From NCBI GenBank assembly GCA_947632395.1, contig CANRPA010000001.1, positions 23,922-87,921 of the forward strand: DNA of 64,000 nucleotides, read 5' to 3'. The notes beneath the pieces were generated by a model. The model saw only the letters and a list, made by a program, of their open reading frames with translations. It searched no databases and had not been told where the DNA came from. Both the position numbers and the translations under genes were made by a program. This document shows positions 4,769 to 27,325 of this stretch, piece after piece. Each line of letters begins with the position of its first letter. Positions within the stretch are counted from its first letter, which is position 1. The DNA is from an uncultured Bacilli bacterium (lineage in GTDB: Bacteria > Bacillota_I > Bacilli_A > RF39 > UBA660).

Positions 4769-6193
4769 ATGAATTTACCAGATTTAAAAGAAGCAAAGAT
4801 AAGAACTAATAAAAAATCTAGAATAATAAAAGATGATTATAAAGTACCAAATGAAATGAAGAATATTGGTAAAAATAAAAAATATTATATAAAGACTTAT
4901 GGATGTCAAATGAATGTACACGATAGTGAAAATATAAGTGCTATATTAGAAGATATGGGTTATGTTAAAACGGAAGATTTGAAAGATGCAGACATAATAT
5001 TACTTAATACTTGTGCGATAAGAGAAAATGCTCATAATAAAATGTTTGGTTTTTTAGGGAGAGTAAAACATTTAAAAGAAACTAAAAAAGATATAATTTG
5101 TGGTATATGTGGATGTATGGCACAAGAAGAAAATGTAGTTGAGTCTATAAAAAATAAATACAAATGGGTAGATATAGTATTTGGAACACATAATTTACAC
5201 AAACTTCCTAATATATTAAAGGAATCTATTGATAAGCAAAAACAAGAGATAGATGTAGTTAGTATAGAAGGAGACATTTATGAAAATATACCTGTAAAAA
5301 GAGATTCAAAATATAAAGCCTGGGTTAATATAATGCTTGGATGTGATAAATTTTGTACATATTGTATAGTTCCATATACAAGAGGAAAACAAAGAAGTAG
5401 AATGCCTATTGATATAATAAATGAAGTTAAAGATTTAGTAAAAGATAATTATAAAGAAGTAACTCTTTTGGGTCAAAATGTAAATGCATATGGTAAAGAT
5501 TTAAATATTGATTATACTATGGGTGATTTACTAGAAGACGTTGCTAAAACAGGGATAGATAGAATTCGTTTTGTAACAAGTCATCCTTGGGATTTCGATG
5601 ACAAAATGATTGAAATAATTGCAAAATACGATAATATTATGCCATATATACATTTACCACTTCAATCAGGATCAGATAGAATTTTAAAATTAATGGGTAG
5701 AAGATATACAAAAGAAAAATATATAAATTTATTTAATAAAATAAAAGAATATATACCTAATGCAGCAATTACTACAGATATAATAGTTGCCTTTCCAGGT
5801 GAGACAGAAGATGATTTTAAAGATACATTAGATGTCGTTAAAACTTGTAAATTTGATTCAGCATTTACATTTATTTATTCACCACGTGAAGGAACTCCTG
5901 CTGCTCGTATGGAAAATACTTTAACAGAAGAAGAAAAAAATAATAGATTATATGAATTAAATGAACTTGTAAACAAATATGCTAATGAAGCAAATCAAAA
6001 ATATTTGAACAAAATTGTACCAGTATTACTCGAAGACATAAGTGAAAAAGAAGGTAATCTTATGGGATATACAGATACTATGAAACTTGTCAATGTAGAG
6101 GCACCTAAATCATATTTAGGTAAAATAGTAAATGTAAAAATAACAGATATAAAAACTTGGAGTTTAGATGGTGAGTTAGTAGAAAAAAATTAA
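4769..6193 (+). CDS. miaB: tRNA-i6A37 methylthiotransferase MiaB (radical SAM MTTase)
   Basis: MTTase N-domain (YIKTYGCQMN), radical-SAM CxxxCxxC (CDKFCTYCIVPY) and a TRAM-like C-terminus. The start is probably internal, at MKNIGKNKKYY. Confidence 0.85.
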   Translation: MNLPDLKEAKIRTNKKSRIIKDDYKVPNEMKNIGKNKKYYIKTYGCQMNVHDSENISAILEDMGYVKTEDLKDADIILLNTCAIRENAHNKMFGFLGRVKHLKETKKDIICGICGCMAQEENVVESIKNKYKWVDIVFGTHNLHKLPNILKESIDKQKQEIDVVSIEGDIYENIPVKRDSKYKAWVNIMLGCDKFCTYCIVPYTRGKQRSRMPIDIINEVKDLVKDNYKEVTLLGQNVNAYGKDLNIDYTMGDLLEDVAKTGIDRIRFVTSHPWDFDDKMIEIIAKYDNIMPYIHLPLQSGSDRILKLMGRRYTKEKYINLFNKIKEYIPNAAITTDIIVAFPGETEDDFKDTLDVVKTCKFDSAFTFIYSPREGTPAARMENTLTEEEKNNRLYELNELVNKYANEANQKYLNKIVPVLLEDISEKEGNLMGYTDTMKLVNVEAPKSYLGKIVNVKITDIKTWSLDGELVEKN

Positions 6194-20595: not shown

Positions 20596-21867
20596 ATGAA
20601 ATTTTATATTTATACATTAGGTTGCAAAGTAAATACATATGAATCTAATGTAATAAAAGATAATTTAATAAATAATGGATATATAGAATCTACTGAAGAT
20701 GATGCTGATATATATATTATAAATACTTGTACAGTTACAAATACAAGTGATAATAAGTCTTTAAAAACCATTAGGAAAGTATTAAGAAATCATCCCAACA
20801 GCATTACAGTTGCTGTAGGATGTATGACTCAAGTAAATAGTAAACTTTTGGAAGAATTAAATATATCAATAGTACTTGGAAATAGTGGAAAAAGTAAAAT
20901 AGTACAATATATAGAAAAATATAAAAAAGAAAGAAAACCTATTATTGAAATTACAAATATAATGGATGAATCATTTGAAAATATGTGTTTGAATAATTTT
21001 AATAAAACCAGAGCCTTTGTAAAAATAGAGGATGGTTGTGAAAATTATTGTAGTTATTGCATTATACCTTTTGCTAGAGGAAAAGTAAGAAGTAAGGATC
21101 CTAAAGTAGTAATAGATGAAATAAAAAAATTAGTTAAAGATGATCATAAAGAGATAGTATTAACTGGAATACATACAGGACATTTTGGTTCTGATTTAAA
21201 TAATTATACTTTTGCTAAATTGCTTAAAGAAATAGAGAAAATAGATGGGTTAAAAAGACTTAGAATATCTTCAATAGAGGTGACAGAACTGGATGATGAG
21301 TTTTTGGATACATTGAAATTTAGTAAAATACTTGTAGACCATATGCATATACCAATTCAATCAGGATCTAATGAGATATTGAAACTTATGAATAGAAAAT
21401 ATGATAAAGAATATTTTATAGAAAAAATAAAAAAAATAAGAAATATTAGACCTGAAATTTCTATTACAACAGATATAATTGTAGGATTTCCAGGAGAAAC
21501 AGAAGAACTTTTTGAAGAAACAATTGATACAATAGAAAAAATTAAATTTTCAAAAATACATGTTTTTCCATTTTCACTTAGAAAAGGTACTAAAGCAGAA
21601 GAATTACCTAATCATATTGATGATGTGACAAAAAAATTAAGAGTAAAAAAACTAATGGAAATAAGTAAAAAATTAGAAATAGAATATTTTAATAAGTTTA
21701 TAGGAAAAGAAGTAGAATTTTTACCAGAAATGTACAAACAAGGTTTTATAACAGGACATACAGGTAATTATTTATTAGTAAAATGTAGTGGAACTGTAAA
21801 AGATTTAAATATATTCAAAAAAGTTAGAATAAAAGAAGTAGATTATCCATATGTTATAAGTGAATAA
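20596..21867 (+). CDS. mtaB: tRNA t6A37 methylthiotransferase MtaB (radical SAM MTTase)
   Basis: FYIYTLGCKVN MTTase N-domain, CENYCSYCIIPF radical-SAM motif and a TRAM C-terminus. 423 aa. Confidence 0.8.
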   Translation: MKFYIYTLGCKVNTYESNVIKDNLINNGYIESTEDDADIYIINTCTVTNTSDNKSLKTIRKVLRNHPNSITVAVGCMTQVNSKLLEELNISIVLGNSGKSKIVQYIEKYKKERKPIIEITNIMDESFENMCLNNFNKTRAFVKIEDGCENYCSYCIIPFARGKVRSKDPKVVIDEIKKLVKDDHKEIVLTGIHTGHFGSDLNNYTFAKLLKEIEKIDGLKRLRISSIEVTELDDEFLDTLKFSKILVDHMHIPIQSGSNEILKLMNRKYDKEYFIEKIKKIRNIRPEISITTDIIVGFPGETEELFEETIDTIEKIKFSKIHVFPFSLRKGTKAEELPNHIDDVTKKLRVKKLMEISKKLEIEYFNKFIGKEVEFLPEMYKQGFITGHTGNYLLVKCSGTVKDLNIFKKVRIKEVDYPYVISE

Positions 21868-21916: not shown

Positions 21917-21945
21917 TTGACAAAATATAAAAACTCATCTATAAT
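21917..21945 (+). promoter_or_regulatory. consensus sigma-A promoter (TTGACA-N17-TATAAT) driving the T-box leader
   Basis: TTGACA at 21917-22, a 17-nt spacer and TATAAT at 21940-45. Confidence 0.55.
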
Positions 21946-21949
21946 TAGA

Positions 21950-22200
21950 TACGTAAACTTTTTGAAAAGTGTTGATTGAGAGAAGTAATAATGTAAACTA
22001 ATTAAAGCGAGTTAGGTATGGTGTAAGCTAACAATAAAGAGCATTATGAATAACACTCATGAACTATTAGCTTGAATATTGAATAGAGTTAATCGGATGC
22101 AACCCGTTAGAAATTGCACGATTTGATAGAATCGGTAAAGAGGTCAATATGACAAATTGGGTGGCACCGCGGAAAAGTAATTCGTCCCAAAGAAAAGGCG
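21950..22200 (+). promoter_or_regulatory. T-box riboswitch leader, probably Asn-specific
   Basis: Stem-I-like GA/AGAGA and AGUA elements (TGATTGAGAGAAGTAA). The conserved T-box sequence AAATTGGGTGGCACCGCGG lies at 22154-22172. Candidate AAC specifier codons sit at 22052-54 and 22062-64. I could not see the terminator helix clearly by eye. Confidence 0.6.
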
Positions 22201-22216
22201 GCTACTACTATAATTT

Positions 22217-22292
22217 GCTCAATTAGCTCAGTCGGTAGAGCGCACGGCTGTTAACCGTTAGGTCGTAGGTTCGAGTCCTACATTGAGCGCCA
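22217..22292 (+). tRNA. tRNA-Asn (GUU)
   Basis: 76 nt. Acceptor stem GCTCAAT / ATTGAGC plus G and CCA. D-arm AGCTCAGTCGGTAGAGC, anticodon loop CTGTTAA (GUU) and T-arm GGTTCGAGTCC. Confidence 0.9.
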
Positions 22293-22299
22293 TTTTAGT

Positions 22300-22375
22300 G
22301 CCTGATTAGCTCAGTCGGTAGAGCGCACGGCTGTTAACCGTTAGGTCGTAGGTTCGAGTCCTACATCAGGCGCCA
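22300..22375 (+). tRNA. tRNA-Asn (GUU), second copy
   Basis: Identical body to the first copy, with acceptor stem GCCTGAT / ATCAGGC plus G and CCA. Confidence 0.9.
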
Positions 22376-22385
22376 TTTAATTAGT

Positions 22386-22412
22386 AACAAGTCTTAGAAC
22401 TTGTTTTTTTAT
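22386..22412 (+). terminator. hairpin plus U-tract between the tRNA-Asn pair and gatC
   Basis: AACAAGT-CTTAGA-ACTTGTT followed by TTTTTTT. Confidence 0.45.
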
Positions 22413-22431
22413 ATTTAAAAGGAGGATTATT

Positions 22432-22725
22432 ATGGTAACTAAAGAAAAACTAAAAGATTATGCTGCAAAACTCATGTTTGATATGGATGATGCAGGATAC
22501 GATAGGACATTAGCAGAATTTGAAACAGTAGAAAAACACATGGCATTAATAGGTGAAATTGAAAACATAGATAATATAGAACCTATGACATTTCCATATG
22601 TTATATATCATGCTCATTTAAGAGAAGATGAAGCAAAAGAATGTCTTACAAGCGAAGAAGTTTTGGCAAATGCTAAAGAAACTAAAGCAAATCAAGTAAA
22701 AGTACCAAAGGTGGTGGGAGAATGA
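22432..22725 (+). CDS. gatC: Asp-tRNA(Asn)/Glu-tRNA(Gln) amidotransferase subunit C
   Basis: 97 aa at the head of the gatCAB operon, coupled to gatA. Confidence 0.85.
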   Translation: MVTKEKLKDYAAKLMFDMDDAGYDRTLAEFETVEKHMALIGEIENIDNIEPMTFPYVIYHAHLREDEAKECLTSEEVLANAKETKANQVKVPKVVGE

Positions 22726-24167
22726 AAACAATAATGGATTTAAGAACTGATTTAGATAATAAATTAGTAACAAGTGAAGAATTATTCAAAAAATCTAATG
22801 AACTTGCACATAAATATCAGGATGAATTTAATCCGTTTGTAACTATAATAGATGAGTATAAAAAAGAAGAAAGTGATTCATTACTTAATGGAATACCTTA
22901 TGCATTGAAGGATAATTTTTCAACTAAAGGAATTCTTTCAACTGCTTCTTCTAATATACTTAAAGATTACGTTCCAGTATATGATGCTACTGCATATAAA
23001 AAATTAAAAGCTGCTGGAGCAGTACTTGTTGGGAAAACCGTACTAGATGAACTTGCTATGGGTGGAACAGGAACTACAGGACACACTGGTATTGTTAGAA
23101 ATCCATGGAATAAAAATCACCAAATAGGTGGCTCTTCTGCAGGAAGCGCTGCAGCAGTCGCACTTGGTATAGTACCATTCGCACTTGGTTCAGATACAGG
23201 AGATTCAATTCGTAAACCAGCTGCATTTGGTGGAGTAGTAGGATTTAAACCAACATATGGTAGAATTTCTAGATATGGTCTTTTTGCTTTCGCATCAAGT
23301 TTAGATCATGTAGGTTGTTTTACTAGATGTGTAAGAGATGCTGCAATTGTTACAGATATATTAAAAGGACAAGATGAACGCGATATGACATCTCTTCCTG
23401 ATGAAACAATAAAATATACAGATATGATAGATAATGATATAAAGGGGAAAAAATTATTTTATATCAAAGAACTAACTGATTTAGATATGTATAAAAATTC
23501 AGGTGAAGAAACACTTGAAATATTAAAGAAATTTAAAGATACAATAGAAAAATGTAAAAGTATAGGTTTTGAAGTAGAAGAAGTATCTTTTGATGAAAAA
23601 TTACTTAAGGCAATATATCCTGCATATATGACAATAAGTTGTGCAGAAGCTACAAGTAATAATTCTAACCTTACTGGAATACCATTTGGTCCAAGAGGTG
23701 AAGGAGATAATATAAATGATATTATGTTTGATGCTAGAACAAAGGGATTTAGTGAATTAATCAAAAGAAGATTTATATTAGGAAGTTATATTTTACAAAG
23801 AGAAAATCAAGAAAGATTATTTAAAAATGCAGGAAGACTTAGAAGAATTATAGTAGATAAAATGAATGAATTATATAAAAAATATGATGCTATGATACTT
23901 CCAGCAAGTGGAGGAATCGCTCCTACGTTTGACTCTGAAATAGATAGAATGTCTCCAAGATATTTAATGTTAGAAAATCATATGGCAATAGGAAATTTTG
24001 GTGGATTTCCAAGCATAACAATACCTAATGGATTTGTTAAAAATATGCCAATTGGAATAAATATAACAGGTAGATGCTTTGAAGATGGACTTACATTAAA
24101 TATAGCAAATAAAATAGAAGAAGCTTTAGGCTTTGGCAAAATAATAAAGGAGGAATATGATGTATAA
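22722..24167 (+). CDS. gatA: amidotransferase subunit A (amidase family)
   Basis: Amidase signature GGSSAGSAAAVA and the Ser-cisSer-Lys region. Confidence 0.9.
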   Translation: MKTIMDLRTDLDNKLVTSEELFKKSNELAHKYQDEFNPFVTIIDEYKKEESDSLLNGIPYALKDNFSTKGILSTASSNILKDYVPVYDATAYKKLKAAGAVLVGKTVLDELAMGGTGTTGHTGIVRNPWNKNHQIGGSSAGSAAAVALGIVPFALGSDTGDSIRKPAAFGGVVGFKPTYGRISRYGLFAFASSLDHVGCFTRCVRDAAIVTDILKGQDERDMTSLPDETIKYTDMIDNDIKGKKLFYIKELTDLDMYKNSGEETLEILKKFKDTIEKCKSIGFEVEEVSFDEKLLKAIYPAYMTISCAEATSNNSNLTGIPFGPRGEGDNINDIMFDARTKGFSELIKRRFILGSYILQRENQERLFKNAGRLRRIIVDKMNELYKKYDAMILPASGGIAPTFDSEIDRMSPRYLMLENHMAIGNFGGFPSITIPNGFVKNMPIGINITGRCFEDGLTLNIANKIEEALGFGKIIKEEYDV

Positions 24168-25581
24168 GGTAGTTATTGGACTTGAAGTTCACTGCGAGGT
24201 AAAAACAAATTCAAAAAACTTTTCTAATTCTAGAAATACATACTCAGAATACCCAAATGAAAACATAGATACAGTAGACATTGGGCTTCCTGGAATTCTT
24301 CCTGTAGCCAATAAAGAGGCATTTAGAAAATCATTAATGATGTCTCTTGCCCTTAATTGTAAAACTCCTGATATAGTAATGTTTGATAGAAAAAATTATT
24401 ATTATCCAGATCTTCCTAAAGGTTATCAGATAACACAAGAAACAAAACCAGTAGGTAGAGATGGTTATGTTATGATTAATGTAAATGGTGAAGATAAAAA
24501 AATATTAATAAATAATATTCACTTGGAAGAAGATACAGCTAGTCTAGATCATTTTGGTAATTATTCATTAATAGATTATAATAGGTCAGGTATACCATTA
24601 CTTGAAACAGTAACAGAACCTTGTATGAATTCAGCAGATGAGGCTATAACTTTCTTAGAGGCTCTTAAAGGAATTTTTCTATATACAGGAGTATCAGAGG
24701 CAAGAACTGATAGAGGACAAATGAGATGCGATGTTAATATATCATTAATGGAAGAAGATGCAACTGAATTTGGTACTAAAGTAGAAATGAAAAATATAAA
24801 TAGTTTTAATAATGTAAGACTTGCTATAGAATATGAAATTAAAAGACAAACTGAGATATTAAAAAGTGGTGGTAAAGTACTTCAAGAAACTAGACGTTTT
24901 GATTCAGAAGACCTAAAAACATATCCAATGCGTTCTAAAGTAGATGCTATAGATTATAAATACTATATAGAACCTAATATACCTCCTATTAAAATTAGTG
25001 ATGATTTAATTGAAGAAATAAAAAAAGAGATACCTATGCTTCAATATGAGAGAGTAGAAAAGTATATGGGTGAATATGGACTATCTAGATATGATTCTGA
25101 AATAATTGTTAAAGATAAAAAAGTTTCAGATTATTTCGAAGAGACAATTAAATTGGGTGCAGATCCAAAATCAAGTGCTAATTGGCTTACAAGTATAATT
25201 TTAGGACATTTAAATAAATATGAAATAACTATAGATGATTTATATTTAACACCTAAAATGCTTTATGAATTAATAAGTATGGTAGATACTGGTAAAATTT
25301 CTTCTAAGCAAAGTAAACAAGTTTTCTTTAAATGTATAGAGGAAAATAAAGAACCTAGTGTTATAGTTAAAGAAATGGGTATGACTCAAATAACAGATGA
25401 CAAAACAATTCGTGATATTGCTATAAGAGTTTTAGATGAACATCCAGAATTAATAGAAGATCATAGAAAAGGTAAAAATACATTTGACTATTTTGTAGGA
25501 CAAGTAATGAAGGAAACAAGAGGTCAAGCAAATCCTAAAGTAACTAGAGATATAATCTTAGAAGAAATGGAGAAAAGATAA
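24157..25581 (+). CDS. gatB: amidotransferase subunit B
   Basis: GatB N-terminus MMYKVVIGLEVHCEV and a C-terminal GatB/YqeY domain. Confidence 0.9.
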   Translation: MMYKVVIGLEVHCEVKTNSKNFSNSRNTYSEYPNENIDTVDIGLPGILPVANKEAFRKSLMMSLALNCKTPDIVMFDRKNYYYPDLPKGYQITQETKPVGRDGYVMINVNGEDKKILINNIHLEEDTASLDHFGNYSLIDYNRSGIPLLETVTEPCMNSADEAITFLEALKGIFLYTGVSEARTDRGQMRCDVNISLMEEDATEFGTKVEMKNINSFNNVRLAIEYEIKRQTEILKSGGKVLQETRRFDSEDLKTYPMRSKVDAIDYKYYIEPNIPPIKISDDLIEEIKKEIPMLQYERVEKYMGEYGLSRYDSEIIVKDKKVSDYFEETIKLGADPKSSANWLTSIILGHLNKYEITIDDLYLTPKMLYELISMVDTGKISSKQSKQVFFKCIEENKEPSVIVKEMGMTQITDDKTIRDIAIRVLDEHPELIEDHRKGKNTFDYFVGQVMKETRGQANPKVTRDIILEEMEKR

Positions 25582-25582
25582 T

Positions 25583-27325
25583 ATGGAAAATAAATATCGT
25601 AGTGTATATTGTGGTAACGTAGATGAATCATATATAGGTAAAGAAGTTAAAGTAGCAGGTTGGATTGCCAATATACGTGATCATGGTGGTGTAATATTTT
25701 TAGATATAAGAGATGAAAAAGGTGTAGTTCAGATAGTAAGTAATGATAATAATATGTTTACAGGTCTTACTAAAGAATCAAGTGTAACAGTTAAAGGTAT
25801 AGTAAGAAAAAGAGATGAAGATGATTATAATGACCATATAAGTACAGGTACTATTGAAATACTTGTAGAAAGTATTGTCGTACTTGGAAAAGCACCTAAT
25901 GAATTACCTTTTGAAGTAATTACCTCAACTAATGTATCTGAAGATATAAGACTTAAATATCGTTATCTAGATCTTAGAAATGATAAAGTTAGAAATAATA
26001 TTAATTTAAGAGCTAAAGTACTTAAATTTTTAAGAAACAAGATGGATTCTATGGGATTTACTGAAGTACAAACTCCAATTATAACAGCATCATCTCCTGA
26101 AGGAGCAAGAGACTTCATAATTCCATCAAGAAAATTTCATGGTAAATTTTATGCTTTACCCCAAGCACCTCAAGTATTTAAAGAAATACTTATGGTAAGT
26201 GGTTTTGATAAATATTATCAAATCGCACCTTGCTTTAGAGATGAAGATTGTAGAAGTGATAGAACATTAGAATTTTATCAGTTGGATTTTGAGATGGCTT
26301 TTGTAGAAGAAGAAGATGTATATAAAGTAGGAGAAGAAATTTTTTACGATACATTTAAAAATTTTTCAAATAAGGAAGTATCACCTAAACCATTTAGAAG
26401 AATTCCATTTAAAGAAGCAATGTTAAAATATGGAACTGATAAACCAGATTTAAGAAATCCACTAGAAATAATAGATATAAGTGAAGTATTTGTAGATAGT
26501 GATTTTAAACCATTTAGAGGAGTATGTGTTAGAGGAATTAAAGTTGATAACATAGGCGATAAATCAAATAGTTGGTTTAATGAAGTAGTAGATTATGCTA
26601 GTAGTATAGGAATGCCTGGAATAGGGTATATAACACTTATGGAAGATGGAAGTTTTAAAGGACCTATCGATAAATTCTTAACTGATGAAGATAGAAAATT
26701 ACTAATAGAAAAAGCTAATTTAAAAACTAATAGTGTATTATTTTTTATAGCAGACAAAAAGGAAAAAGTTGCTGCTAAAAATGCGGGAATGATTAGAACT
26801 GAACTTGGTAGAAAATTAGATTTAATAGATCCAAATAAATTTGAATTCTGTATAATTAATGATTTCCCTATGTTTGAATATAATGATGAAGAAGATAAAT
26901 ATGAATTCTGCCATAATCCATTTAGTATGCCACAGGGAGGAATTAAGGCATATGATAATAATAATATAGATGATATTATTGCTTATCAATATGACTTTGT
27001 TTGTAATGGAAATGAGATGGCATCAGGTGCGGTTAGAAATCACGATATAGAATCATTAAAAAAAGGATTTAGTGTAGTTGGATATGATGAAAACGTACTT
27101 GAAACTAGATTCTCATCACTATATAATGCTTTCAAATATGGTGTACCACCTCATGCAGGAATGGCTCCAGGTATTGATAGAATTATAATGCTTTTACAAG
27201 ATGAACCAAATTTAAGAGAAGTTCAAGCATTCCCAATGAGTGTATCAGGATATGATGCTATGATGAATTGTCCTAGTGAAATATCAGAACAACAATTAAG
27301 GGAAGTACATATTAAAGTAAGATAA
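25583..27325 (+). CDS. aspS: aspartate--tRNA ligase, probably non-discriminating
   Basis: 580 aa. Class II aaRS motifs (FRDE, GLDR), an N-terminal OB anticodon-binding domain and the bacterial insertion domain. Confidence 0.9.
   Translation: MENKYRSVYCGNVDESYIGKEVKVAGWIANIRDHGGVIFLDIRDEKGVVQIVSNDNNMFTGLTKESSVTVKGIVRKRDEDDYNDHISTGTIEILVESIVVLGKAPNELPFEVITSTNVSEDIRLKYRYLDLRNDKVRNNINLRAKVLKFLRNKMDSMGFTEVQTPIITASSPEGARDFIIPSRKFHGKFYALPQAPQVFKEILMVSGFDKYYQIAPCFRDEDCRSDRTLEFYQLDFEMAFVEEEDVYKVGEEIFYDTFKNFSNKEVSPKPFRRIPFKEAMLKYGTDKPDLRNPLEIIDISEVFVDSDFKPFRGVCVRGIKVDNIGDKSNSWFNEVVDYASSIGMPGIGYITLMEDGSFKGPIDKFLTDEDRKLLIEKANLKTNSVLFFIADKKEKVAAKNAGMIRTELGRKLDLIDPNKFEFCIINDFPMFEYNDEEDKYEFCHNPFSMPQGGIKAYDNNNIDDIIAYQYDFVCNGNEMASGAVRNHDIESLKKGFSVVGYDENVLETRFSSLYNAFKYGVPPHAGMAPGIDRIIMLLQDEPNLREVQAFPMSVSGYDAMMNCPSEISEQQLREVHIKVR

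Follow-up and report, generated by a model that had tools for sequence, protein, structure and literature searches.

A T-box leader specific for tRNA-Asn precedes tandem tRNA-Asn genes and gatCAB-aspS in uncultured low-GC bacteria

In a 64,000-nucleotide (nt) stretch of DNA from an uncultured Bacilli bacterium (contig CANRPA010000001.1; the whole stretch is called the window here), a T-box leader specific for asparagine lies upstream of two tRNA-Asn(GUU) genes, which are followed in turn by gatC, gatA, gatB and aspS. The explanation that we favour, and hold to be probable, is a single transcription unit in which the T-box scales the whole Asn-decoding module, its own ligand included. T-boxes are textbook sensors of tRNA charging that control synthetase, biosynthesis and transporter genes, and regulation of bacterial tRNA genes is believed to act chiefly at the promoter, through growth rate and the stringent response. 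The proposed unit occupies positions 21917-27325 on the + strand and comprises a promoter, the T-box leader, the two tRNA-Asn genes, a hairpin with a U7 tract and gatC-gatA-gatB-aspS. The T-box and the two tRNAs are the only three Rfam matches in the 64-kb window.

An earlier note on this DNA had described a consensus promoter followed by a T-box leader, and both descriptions held. The RF00230 covariance model scored 124.6 bits against the leader (gathering score 93, E = 3.6e-27) and aligned over the full model (1-219). The promoter and the parts of the leader are listed below.

21917-21945, + strand: sigma-70-type promoter, TTGACA-17 nt-TATAAT, with 12/12 consensus matches
21963-22192, + strand: T-box leader (Stem I with specifier loop, Stem II/IIA-B region, Stem III, antiterminator), Rfam RF00230
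22052-22054, + strand: specifier codon AAC (Asn) in the context GAA-U-AAC-A (22048-22055), from the sequence and the Rfam alignment
22154-22172, + strand: T-box sequence AAATTGGGTGGCACCGCGG, read from the sequence
22157-22190, + strand: antiterminator, from the Rfam alignment; lower helix 22157-61/22186-90, upper helix 22169-72/22182-85
22162-22168, + strand: antiterminator bulge UGGCACC (7 nt), whose UGGC (22162-22165) is complementary to GCCA-3' of tRNA-Asn

The specifier codon, which the earlier note had left to be identified, is AAC (Asn); it carries a purine on its 3' side and pairs with the GUU anticodon of both downstream tRNAs. The specifier loop of the window reads GAAUAACA and holds no Glu codon, and all 62 of the 62 related leaders have GAA-N-AAC-purine in the corresponding position. 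A UGGC or UGGU bulge faces G73-CCA of the tRNAs throughout the window and its relatives. With the AAC specifier and the UGGC bulge both matching, the leader is therefore built to bind the tRNA species encoded just 3' of it. Judged by covariance score, specifier and bulge, it is a genuine Asn-specific T-box. As a separate observation, the specifier context GAAGAACA, in which GAA (Glu) and AAC (Asn) overlap, was seen in L018, L022, L056, L066, L090, L104, L111 and L119.

The two tRNA genes have the following features.

22217-22292, + strand: tRNA-Asn(GUU) copy 1, acceptor stem GCUCAAU/AUUGAGC, G73, encoded CCA (ARAGORN; Rfam tRNA, 72.4 bits)
22300-22375, + strand: tRNA-Asn(GUU) copy 2, acceptor stem GCCUGAU/AUCAGGC, G73, encoded CCA (ARAGORN; Rfam tRNA, 71.8 bits)

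Both programs thus recover the pair of tRNA-Asn(GUU) genes described in the earlier note, but not as identical copies: they differ at six positions, which make up three compensatory acceptor-stem pairs (3-70, 4-69 and 5-68), and this argues that both copies are functional. Copy 1 begins 24 nt beyond the last position matched by Rfam and 44 nt beyond the T-box sequence, not at the spacing of about 16 nt first given. The U at position -1 of the tRNA is nearly invariant, and all tRNA-Asn copies in the window and its relatives have G1-C72, G73 and an encoded CCA, with archaeal-type G46 and U47 present.

The same layout recurs in other genomes. A pattern scan that required a standard T-arm of any kind 3' of a T-box sequence, at the spacing of a tRNA, covered one genome per species in 185,579 species and returned at least 119 loci. 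Among the matches listed, at least 64 loci, each from a species-level genome, have a T-box followed by 1-4 tandem tRNA-Asn(GTT) genes, the only departure from all-Asn arrays being an Asn-Glu pair; two further T-box plus tRNA-Asn loci, L019 and L101, were recognised by Rfam. The RF00230 gathering score was passed by 18 of the 19 relatives tested. Wherever the contig is long enough, gatC-gatA-gatB and usually aspS lie 3' of the array, with GatC 33-94% identical to that of the window. The layout occurs in uncultured gut bacteria of low GC content, which carry the labels Bacilli, Tenericutes, Mollicutes, Erysipelotrichaceae or Candidatus Coprosoma and have complete chromosomes of about 1.3-1.5 Mb, and the closest relative among the matches listed is L032 from rabbit gut (93% identity over leader and tRNAs). 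Conservation of the layout on this scale means that it is no accident of the window genome. The arrangement is indeed unusual relative to the T-box literature searched, as the earlier note had remarked, yet it is strongly conserved.

Apparent T-boxes before other tRNAs (Arg, Leu, Ser, Lys, Gly, Thr, Asp, Pro, Ala and Sec, in high-GC taxa) were discarded, since all 17 of the 17 loci tested lacked a T-box and therefore represent chance 12-mer matches. The first array tRNA in L009, L019, L063, L089, L097 and L100 combines acceptor halves of different tRNA-Asn variants into a mismatched stem. Collapse of tandem repeats in short-read assembly is the most likely cause, so that tRNA copy numbers in metagenome-assembled genomes are lower bounds.

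At the junction between the switch and the first tRNA, the loci take two forms. In the canonical form, found in 43 loci, a strong hairpin overlapping the 3' strand of the antiterminator is followed by U5-7 (median free energy, dG, -15.7 kcal/mol; median longest U run 6), and the tRNA +1 lies only 5-15 nt after the U-tract. Over 32 distinct aligned sequences this terminator is 90% paired and five of its pairs show compensatory change; slid controls, in which the 3' partner was moved by 1-3 columns, are 31-51% paired. As far as sequence can tell, the T-box in these 43 relatives is a textbook transcription attenuator, and tRNA-Asn is the first gene that it gates. In most canonical-form genomes, tRNA-Ile(GAT) and tRNA-Glu(TTC) end about 25 nt 5' of the leader. 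The only good promoter at such loci lies upstream of tRNA-Ile, which makes the T-box there a checkpoint internal to a tRNA operon. Leaders preceded in this way were seen in L061 (4086-4560) and about 30 others (e.g. L016, L022, L040 and L104); in L100, the first of the upstream tRNAs is itself called tRNA-Asn.

The short interval before the first tRNA also bears on whether the tRNAs could have a promoter of their own. A perfect TATAAT hexamer at 22208-22213, which the earlier note had flagged as a possible internal -10 element, would fit tRNAs transcribed from within the junction (TACTATAAT, 22205-22213), with the T-box controlling nothing or only the read-through into gatCAB. We find this barely credible. 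The promoter scan gives no promoter there, the -35 position being TCCCAA, and a start 6-9 nt past 22213 would fall about 2-5 nt inside the mature tRNA (+1 = 22217) and truncate its acceptor stem. Nor is the motif conserved, because relatives carry TACTATTTA or TACTATTAT at the site, of which TACTATTTA is not -10-like, and the canonical class leaves only the 5-15 nt just mentioned between U-tract and tRNA. No promoter-like site was found by the promoter scan anywhere from the T-box to gatC. The tRNA-Asn genes sit within the T-box transcription unit, as the earlier note had proposed; a functional promoter of their own would not fit.

The second form comprises 20 loci including the window, here referred to as the window subclade. 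These loci have a shorter hairpin, of the UUCGUC/GACGAA type (median dG -8.3 kcal/mol); ahead of the tRNA, U runs reach a length of only 2-3 in every one of the 20 loci (3 in the window). In the window itself the hairpin is as follows.

22176-22206, + strand: weak hairpin at the terminator position, without a U-tract (dG -5.5 kcal/mol, z -0.55)

The earlier note could make out no canonical terminator by eye and had suggested folding the junction. The fold agrees with that impression, since this best hairpin is no more stable than shuffled sequence; it does compete for the 3' strand of the antiterminator (UUCGUC), but a U-tract terminator did not emerge. A mutually exclusive intrinsic terminator, with a stable hairpin and a U-tract, is thus absent from the window and present in the 43 related loci. 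Among 19 relatives, 13 have a subclade hairpin more stable than shuffles (z -1.8 to -4.3). Pairing in the homologous 7-bp helix reaches 87.6% across the subclade, with slid controls at 24-51%, and the helix shows only wobble changes, as expected because one of its strands doubles as an antiterminator strand. For the antiterminator, 98.2% of cells are paired over 19 subclade sequences (slid controls 41-64%). Attenuation in the window subclade is probably weak, dependent on an extra factor, or achieved through another output. The OFF state in the window genome is accordingly uncertain: termination may be weak or need the help of a factor, expression may be leaky or constitutive, or the output may be other than termination.

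Taken at face value, a U-tract in 0 of 20 subclade loci and a window hairpin of about the same stability as the antiterminator (-5.5 versus -6.3 kcal/mol; z -0.55) could mean that the T-box of the subclade no longer attenuates. The consensus promoter, present as TTGACA-N17-TATAAT directly 5' of the T-box in 17 of 20 subclade loci, would then drive tRNA-Asn and gatCAB-aspS approximately constitutively, and the leader would be a relic or be kept for a reason other than switching. Promoter-driven tRNA-Asn genes or arrays without a T-box do occur in related low-GC contigs (L122, L123 and L221). The pattern of conservation nevertheless makes this explanation unlikely. Across species whose GatC proteins are 67-94% identical, the leader is more conserved than neutral-like sites: its identity between the window and subclade relatives is 0.77-0.93, compared with 0.47-0.75 for the junction, 0.62-0.77 for the upstream spacer and 0.43-0.73 for 4-fold sites of gatC. 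The AAC specifier, the UGGC motif and the antiterminator are intact in all subclade leaders, where a relic would be expected to decay, and their Rfam scores are on a par with the canonical class (L045, 148.6; L046, 147.3; L020, 144.1). The hairpin that sequesters the antiterminator has also been kept, and is significant in the 13 of 19 relatives noted above. Judged by these identities, the leader of the window subclade is under purifying selection and is no relic.

The leader might alternatively act as a platform that needs no terminator, the T-box 5' strand (22150-22170) pairing with leader sequence and the initial nucleotides of copy 1 (22198-22221) when uncharged tRNA is lacking and thereby blocking the acceptor stem and RNase P cleavage. 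It would then govern the maturation or stability of the tRNA instead of its transcription. The minimum-energy fold of 22150-22223 is such a long-range helix (-15.6 kcal/mol), and it is 80% paired over 19 subclade sequences against 23-53% in slid controls, a control biased by the origin of the helix, which was taken from the fold of the window itself. The best fold of several relatives joins AUUGGGUG to (U)GCUCAAU, which forms the 5' side of the copy 1 acceptor stem. The duplex between T-box strand and tRNA 5' end beats background 12-mers (median empirical p ~0.05; window -7.8 kcal/mol), and the motif UUACUAUUU is kept in the subclade. However, the helix shows no compensatory changes and a z of only -1.0, and its pairing is A-U/G-U-rich, possible in several registers and of low-complexity composition; where the background is AT-rich, a G-rich T-box strand will find a partner in every pyrimidine-rich acceptor strand. 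The helix would, moreover, touch copy 1 only, not copy 2 or gatCAB, and the native cloverleaf should win, all of which leaves the platform very improbable. We regard as distinctly unlikely the wider proposal that the T-boxes of this lineage are dedicated tRNA-gene regulators forming an autocatalytic, potentially bistable loop, with output in the subclade through pre-tRNA folding and RNase P processing. If true, pre-tRNA folding and processing would constitute a third T-box output mode, besides transcription termination and translation initiation.

The preferred reading, a single T-box-scaled transcription unit, extends past the array into the protein-coding genes. The hairpin-U tract and the gene order gatC-gatA-gatB-aspS given in the earlier note were confirmed, the former by a hairpin and U7 reaching 22410 and the latter by NCBIfam matches.

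22386-22410, + strand: hairpin AACAAGU/ACUUGUU (7 bp, 22386-22405) followed by U7 (dG -5.2 kcal/mol, z -1.9)
22420-22425, + strand: ribosome-binding site AGGAGG, read from the sequence, 5' of gatC
22432-22725, + strand: gatC, divergent (NCBIfam TIGR00135, 53 bits, cut-off 47.1)
22722-24167, + strand: gatA (best NCBIfam match TIGR00132, 441.9 bits, below the equivalog cut-off of 481.1)
24157-25581, + strand: gatB (NCBIfam NF004012, 581 bits, cut-off 338)
25583-27325, + strand: aspS, bacterial-type aspartyl-tRNA synthetase, AspRS (NCBIfam NF001750, 720 bits, cut-off 443)

The element at 22386-22410 is probably a leaky intrinsic terminator between the tRNA array and gatC; it has the hairpin and U-tract sought by the terminator scan, with a G+C content short of the level which that scan calls for. 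In relatives of the window the post-array hairpin takes the form ACAAGYC/GRCUUGU followed by U6-7, with compensatory changes, and a hairpin with U6-8 stands a few nt 5' of the gatC ribosome-binding site in nearly every locus. In some genomes, the CCA of the last tRNA runs straight into UCUUUUUUUU. Within the 40-60 nt that follow the tRNA array in L028, L111 and L104, GGTCGTAGGT...CCTAC occurs in the terminator hairpin ahead of gatC. This hairpin resembles a leftover tRNA-Asn T-arm, as though a decayed tRNA copy had been turned into a terminator. Since there is no room for a promoter and no promoter match past the post-array hairpin, expression of gatCAB-aspS would depend on partial read-through and yield more tRNA than mRNA.

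The regulated genes, gatCAB-aspS, encode the indirect route to Asn-tRNA(Asn), which is the supply pathway matching the Asn specifier. The AspRS is presumably non-discriminating, as its operon context suggests, and a tblastn search with AspRS within the window found no AsnRS or LysRS-type paralogue.

Under the preferred reading, the T-box would read the charging state of tRNA-Asn through two contacts, AAC with the GUU anticodon and UGGC with the free GCCA-3' end. As uncharged tRNA-Asn builds up, the antiterminator would be stabilised and RNA polymerase would enter the tRNA-Asn genes, a fraction of it passing the second terminator into the genes of the indirect route (AspRS, then GatCAB). RNase P and 3' trimming would free the tRNAs from the precursor, and the output of the switch would be a tRNA raised together with its charging and amidation enzymes. 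Because a T-box senses the ratio of charged to uncharged tRNA, a joint rise of tRNA and enzymes would lift the output of Asn-tRNA and leave the signal undisturbed. Co-transcription, read-through ratios, processing and the physiological logic, in which a high demand for Asn is met by a switch that follows a ratio, are what we infer from the layout. The architecture is conserved and well supported, and regulation in the relatives can be demonstrated at the level of sequence logic.

Several points weigh against this reading. With no U run longer than 3 and a weak hairpin in the subclade, classical intrinsic termination in the window genome is doubtful. Co-transcription, read-through and dependence on tRNA would all have to operate as we infer them. 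The positive feedback put forward in the earlier note, in which uncharged tRNA-Asn would induce more tRNA-Asn, follows as a matter of logic, and a loop that induces its own uncharged ligand would bring no obvious benefit unless the enzymes are limiting. T-box-independent tRNA-Asn genes exist in related contigs, so the copies behind the T-box may be only a supplementary pool: stand-alone, promoter-driven tRNA-Asn is found in many low-GC contigs (the copies in L122 and L123 are identical to copy 2 of the window), L175 and L200 have tRNA-Asn linked to 5S rRNA, and L221 is a tandem array without a T-box. When metagenomes were scanned with the body sequence of tRNA-Asn, a T-box stood in front in only 6 of the 102 contigs that could be evaluated. 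The tRNA identity elements raise a further difficulty. Bacterial GatCAB needs U1-A72, and G1-C72 is an antideterminant, according to Bailly et al. 2006 (PMC1635274); the copies in the window and its relatives are all G1-C72, with no U1-A72 among them, and this conflicts with that requirement. Either the GatCAB of this lineage recognises its tRNA differently, or the assignment to the indirect pathway needs biochemical testing. We also considered G1-C72 as a peculiarity of the lineage and rejected it, since this tRNA body is frequent among the stand-alone genes of many low-GC metagenome contigs.

Natural variants rearrange the parts of the locus. L072 (21-530) has a promoter, T-box, terminator, tRNA-Asn, tRNA-Glu and a strong terminator, a cargo of tRNA only, with no gat genes in the 8 kb examined. 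L056 (4325-5177, - strand) carries two switches: a promoter, T-box 1, a terminator and four tRNA-Asn genes are followed after 12 nt by T-box 2 (also AAC), a terminator and gatC. The order in L055 is T-box, tRNA-Asn, aspS. The tRNA lies outside the switch in L223 (7364-7908) and L126, which read tRNA-Asn, tRNA-Ile, tRNA-Glu, T-box, gatCAB, and in L127 (1837-3280), L176 and L208 a promoter-driven tRNA-Asn stands about 1.1 kb upstream of a separate T-box, aspS and gatCAB. These variants show that the T-box plus tRNA module can exist by itself and has been selected as such. The series also supplies ready controls, with tRNA outside or inside the switch, tRNA-only cargo, a double switch, and terminators with or without a U-tract.

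The nearest known system is the aspS-gatCAB ('NT') operon of Clostridium acetobutylicum, which is reportedly controlled by a tRNA-Asn-responsive T-box. Both loci have an Asn-responsive T-box leader before AspRS and GatCAB enzymes; to our knowledge, no tRNA gene is known within the NT operon, whereas here 1-4 tRNA-Asn genes lie between switch and enzymes, sometimes as the sole cargo, and the gene order is gatCAB-aspS. The C. acetobutylicum T-box is said to have two overlapping codons, GAA/AAC. The window, by contrast, reads GAAUAAC without such an overlap, although a few relatives do have GAAGAAC.

In their mechanics, the leaders resemble the Bacillus subtilis tyrS and glyQS T-boxes, with a Stem I specifier, a UGGN bulge and an antiterminator, and 43 relatives have the mutually exclusive terminator with a U-tract. 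They depart from the tyrS/glyQS type in that the genes of the ligand tRNA itself are regulated, that the window subclade lacks a U-tract, and that many relatives' leaders have no promoter of their own and sit inside a tRNA operon after tRNA-Ile and tRNA-Glu. Tandem T-boxes, several leaders in series before one gene, are exemplified by B. subtilis thrZ. L056 likewise has two Asn T-boxes in series, but with four tRNA-Asn genes between them, so that each switch has its own cargo. The E. coli thrU-tyrU-glyT-thrT-tufB operon is a mixed tRNA-mRNA operon whose tRNAs are released by processing, and it shares with the present locus a set of tRNA genes with a translation-related protein gene downstream. 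That operon has no riboswitch and its tRNAs are not substrates of tufB, whereas here the enzymes act on the very tRNA that the leader binds. In the translational ileS T-boxes of Actinobacteria, as described in PMC7778990, the ribosome-binding site is masked by a sequestrator and transcription is not terminated. The alternative helix of the window subclade is similarly not an intrinsic terminator, but it is followed by a tRNA rather than by a ribosome-binding site and open reading frame (ORF), and its sequestration target is only hypothetical.

Full-text searches and the accessible parts of the Wels 2008 survey and the TBDB paper yielded no T-box-regulated tRNA gene; a prior mention in Saad 2012, Saad 2013 or Vitreschak 2008 is possible. 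Nor did the Wels 2008 survey find any T-box before amidotransferase genes. That all hosts are uncultured may explain the gap in reports. What is new here is the ligand's own genes as cargo, the position of the switch within tRNA operons, and a subclade without a U-tract. A riboswitch gating the tRNA genes of its own ligand would represent a new class of cargo and a topology, ligand inducing its own synthesis, that is undescribed for riboswitches. It would also directly exemplify a tRNA species whose supply is adjusted to its own state of charging. All the macromolecular components of the tRNA-dependent Asn pathway (tRNA-Asn, AspRS and GatCAB) are encoded in the operon, which therefore offers a compact, testable module, and the subclade without a U-tract raises the question of how a conserved T-box can function when it has neither terminator nor ribosome-binding site.

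The wider window is ordinary chromosome of 25.3% G+C, with uvrA, ppdK, parE/parC (Gram-positive type), dnaG and pyrG. Across the 49 window ORFs of at least 150 amino acids, Asn accounts for 7.1% of codons and is the fifth commonest amino acid; 89% of window Asn codons are AAU, read by the single GUU tRNA, and the T-box specifier is nevertheless AAC. An unrelated metagenome contig, L134 (108-5419), holds about 25 tRNA genes, a tmRNA and a partial OLE RNA match (RF01071, 107 bits). Two MiaB-family radical-SAM methylthiotransferases are encoded in the window, at 20596-21867 and 4769-6193. The former lies directly 5' of the T-box promoter and scores as MtaB (ms2t6A37 tRNA modification), and mtaB is also found upstream in the closest relatives L032 and L085.

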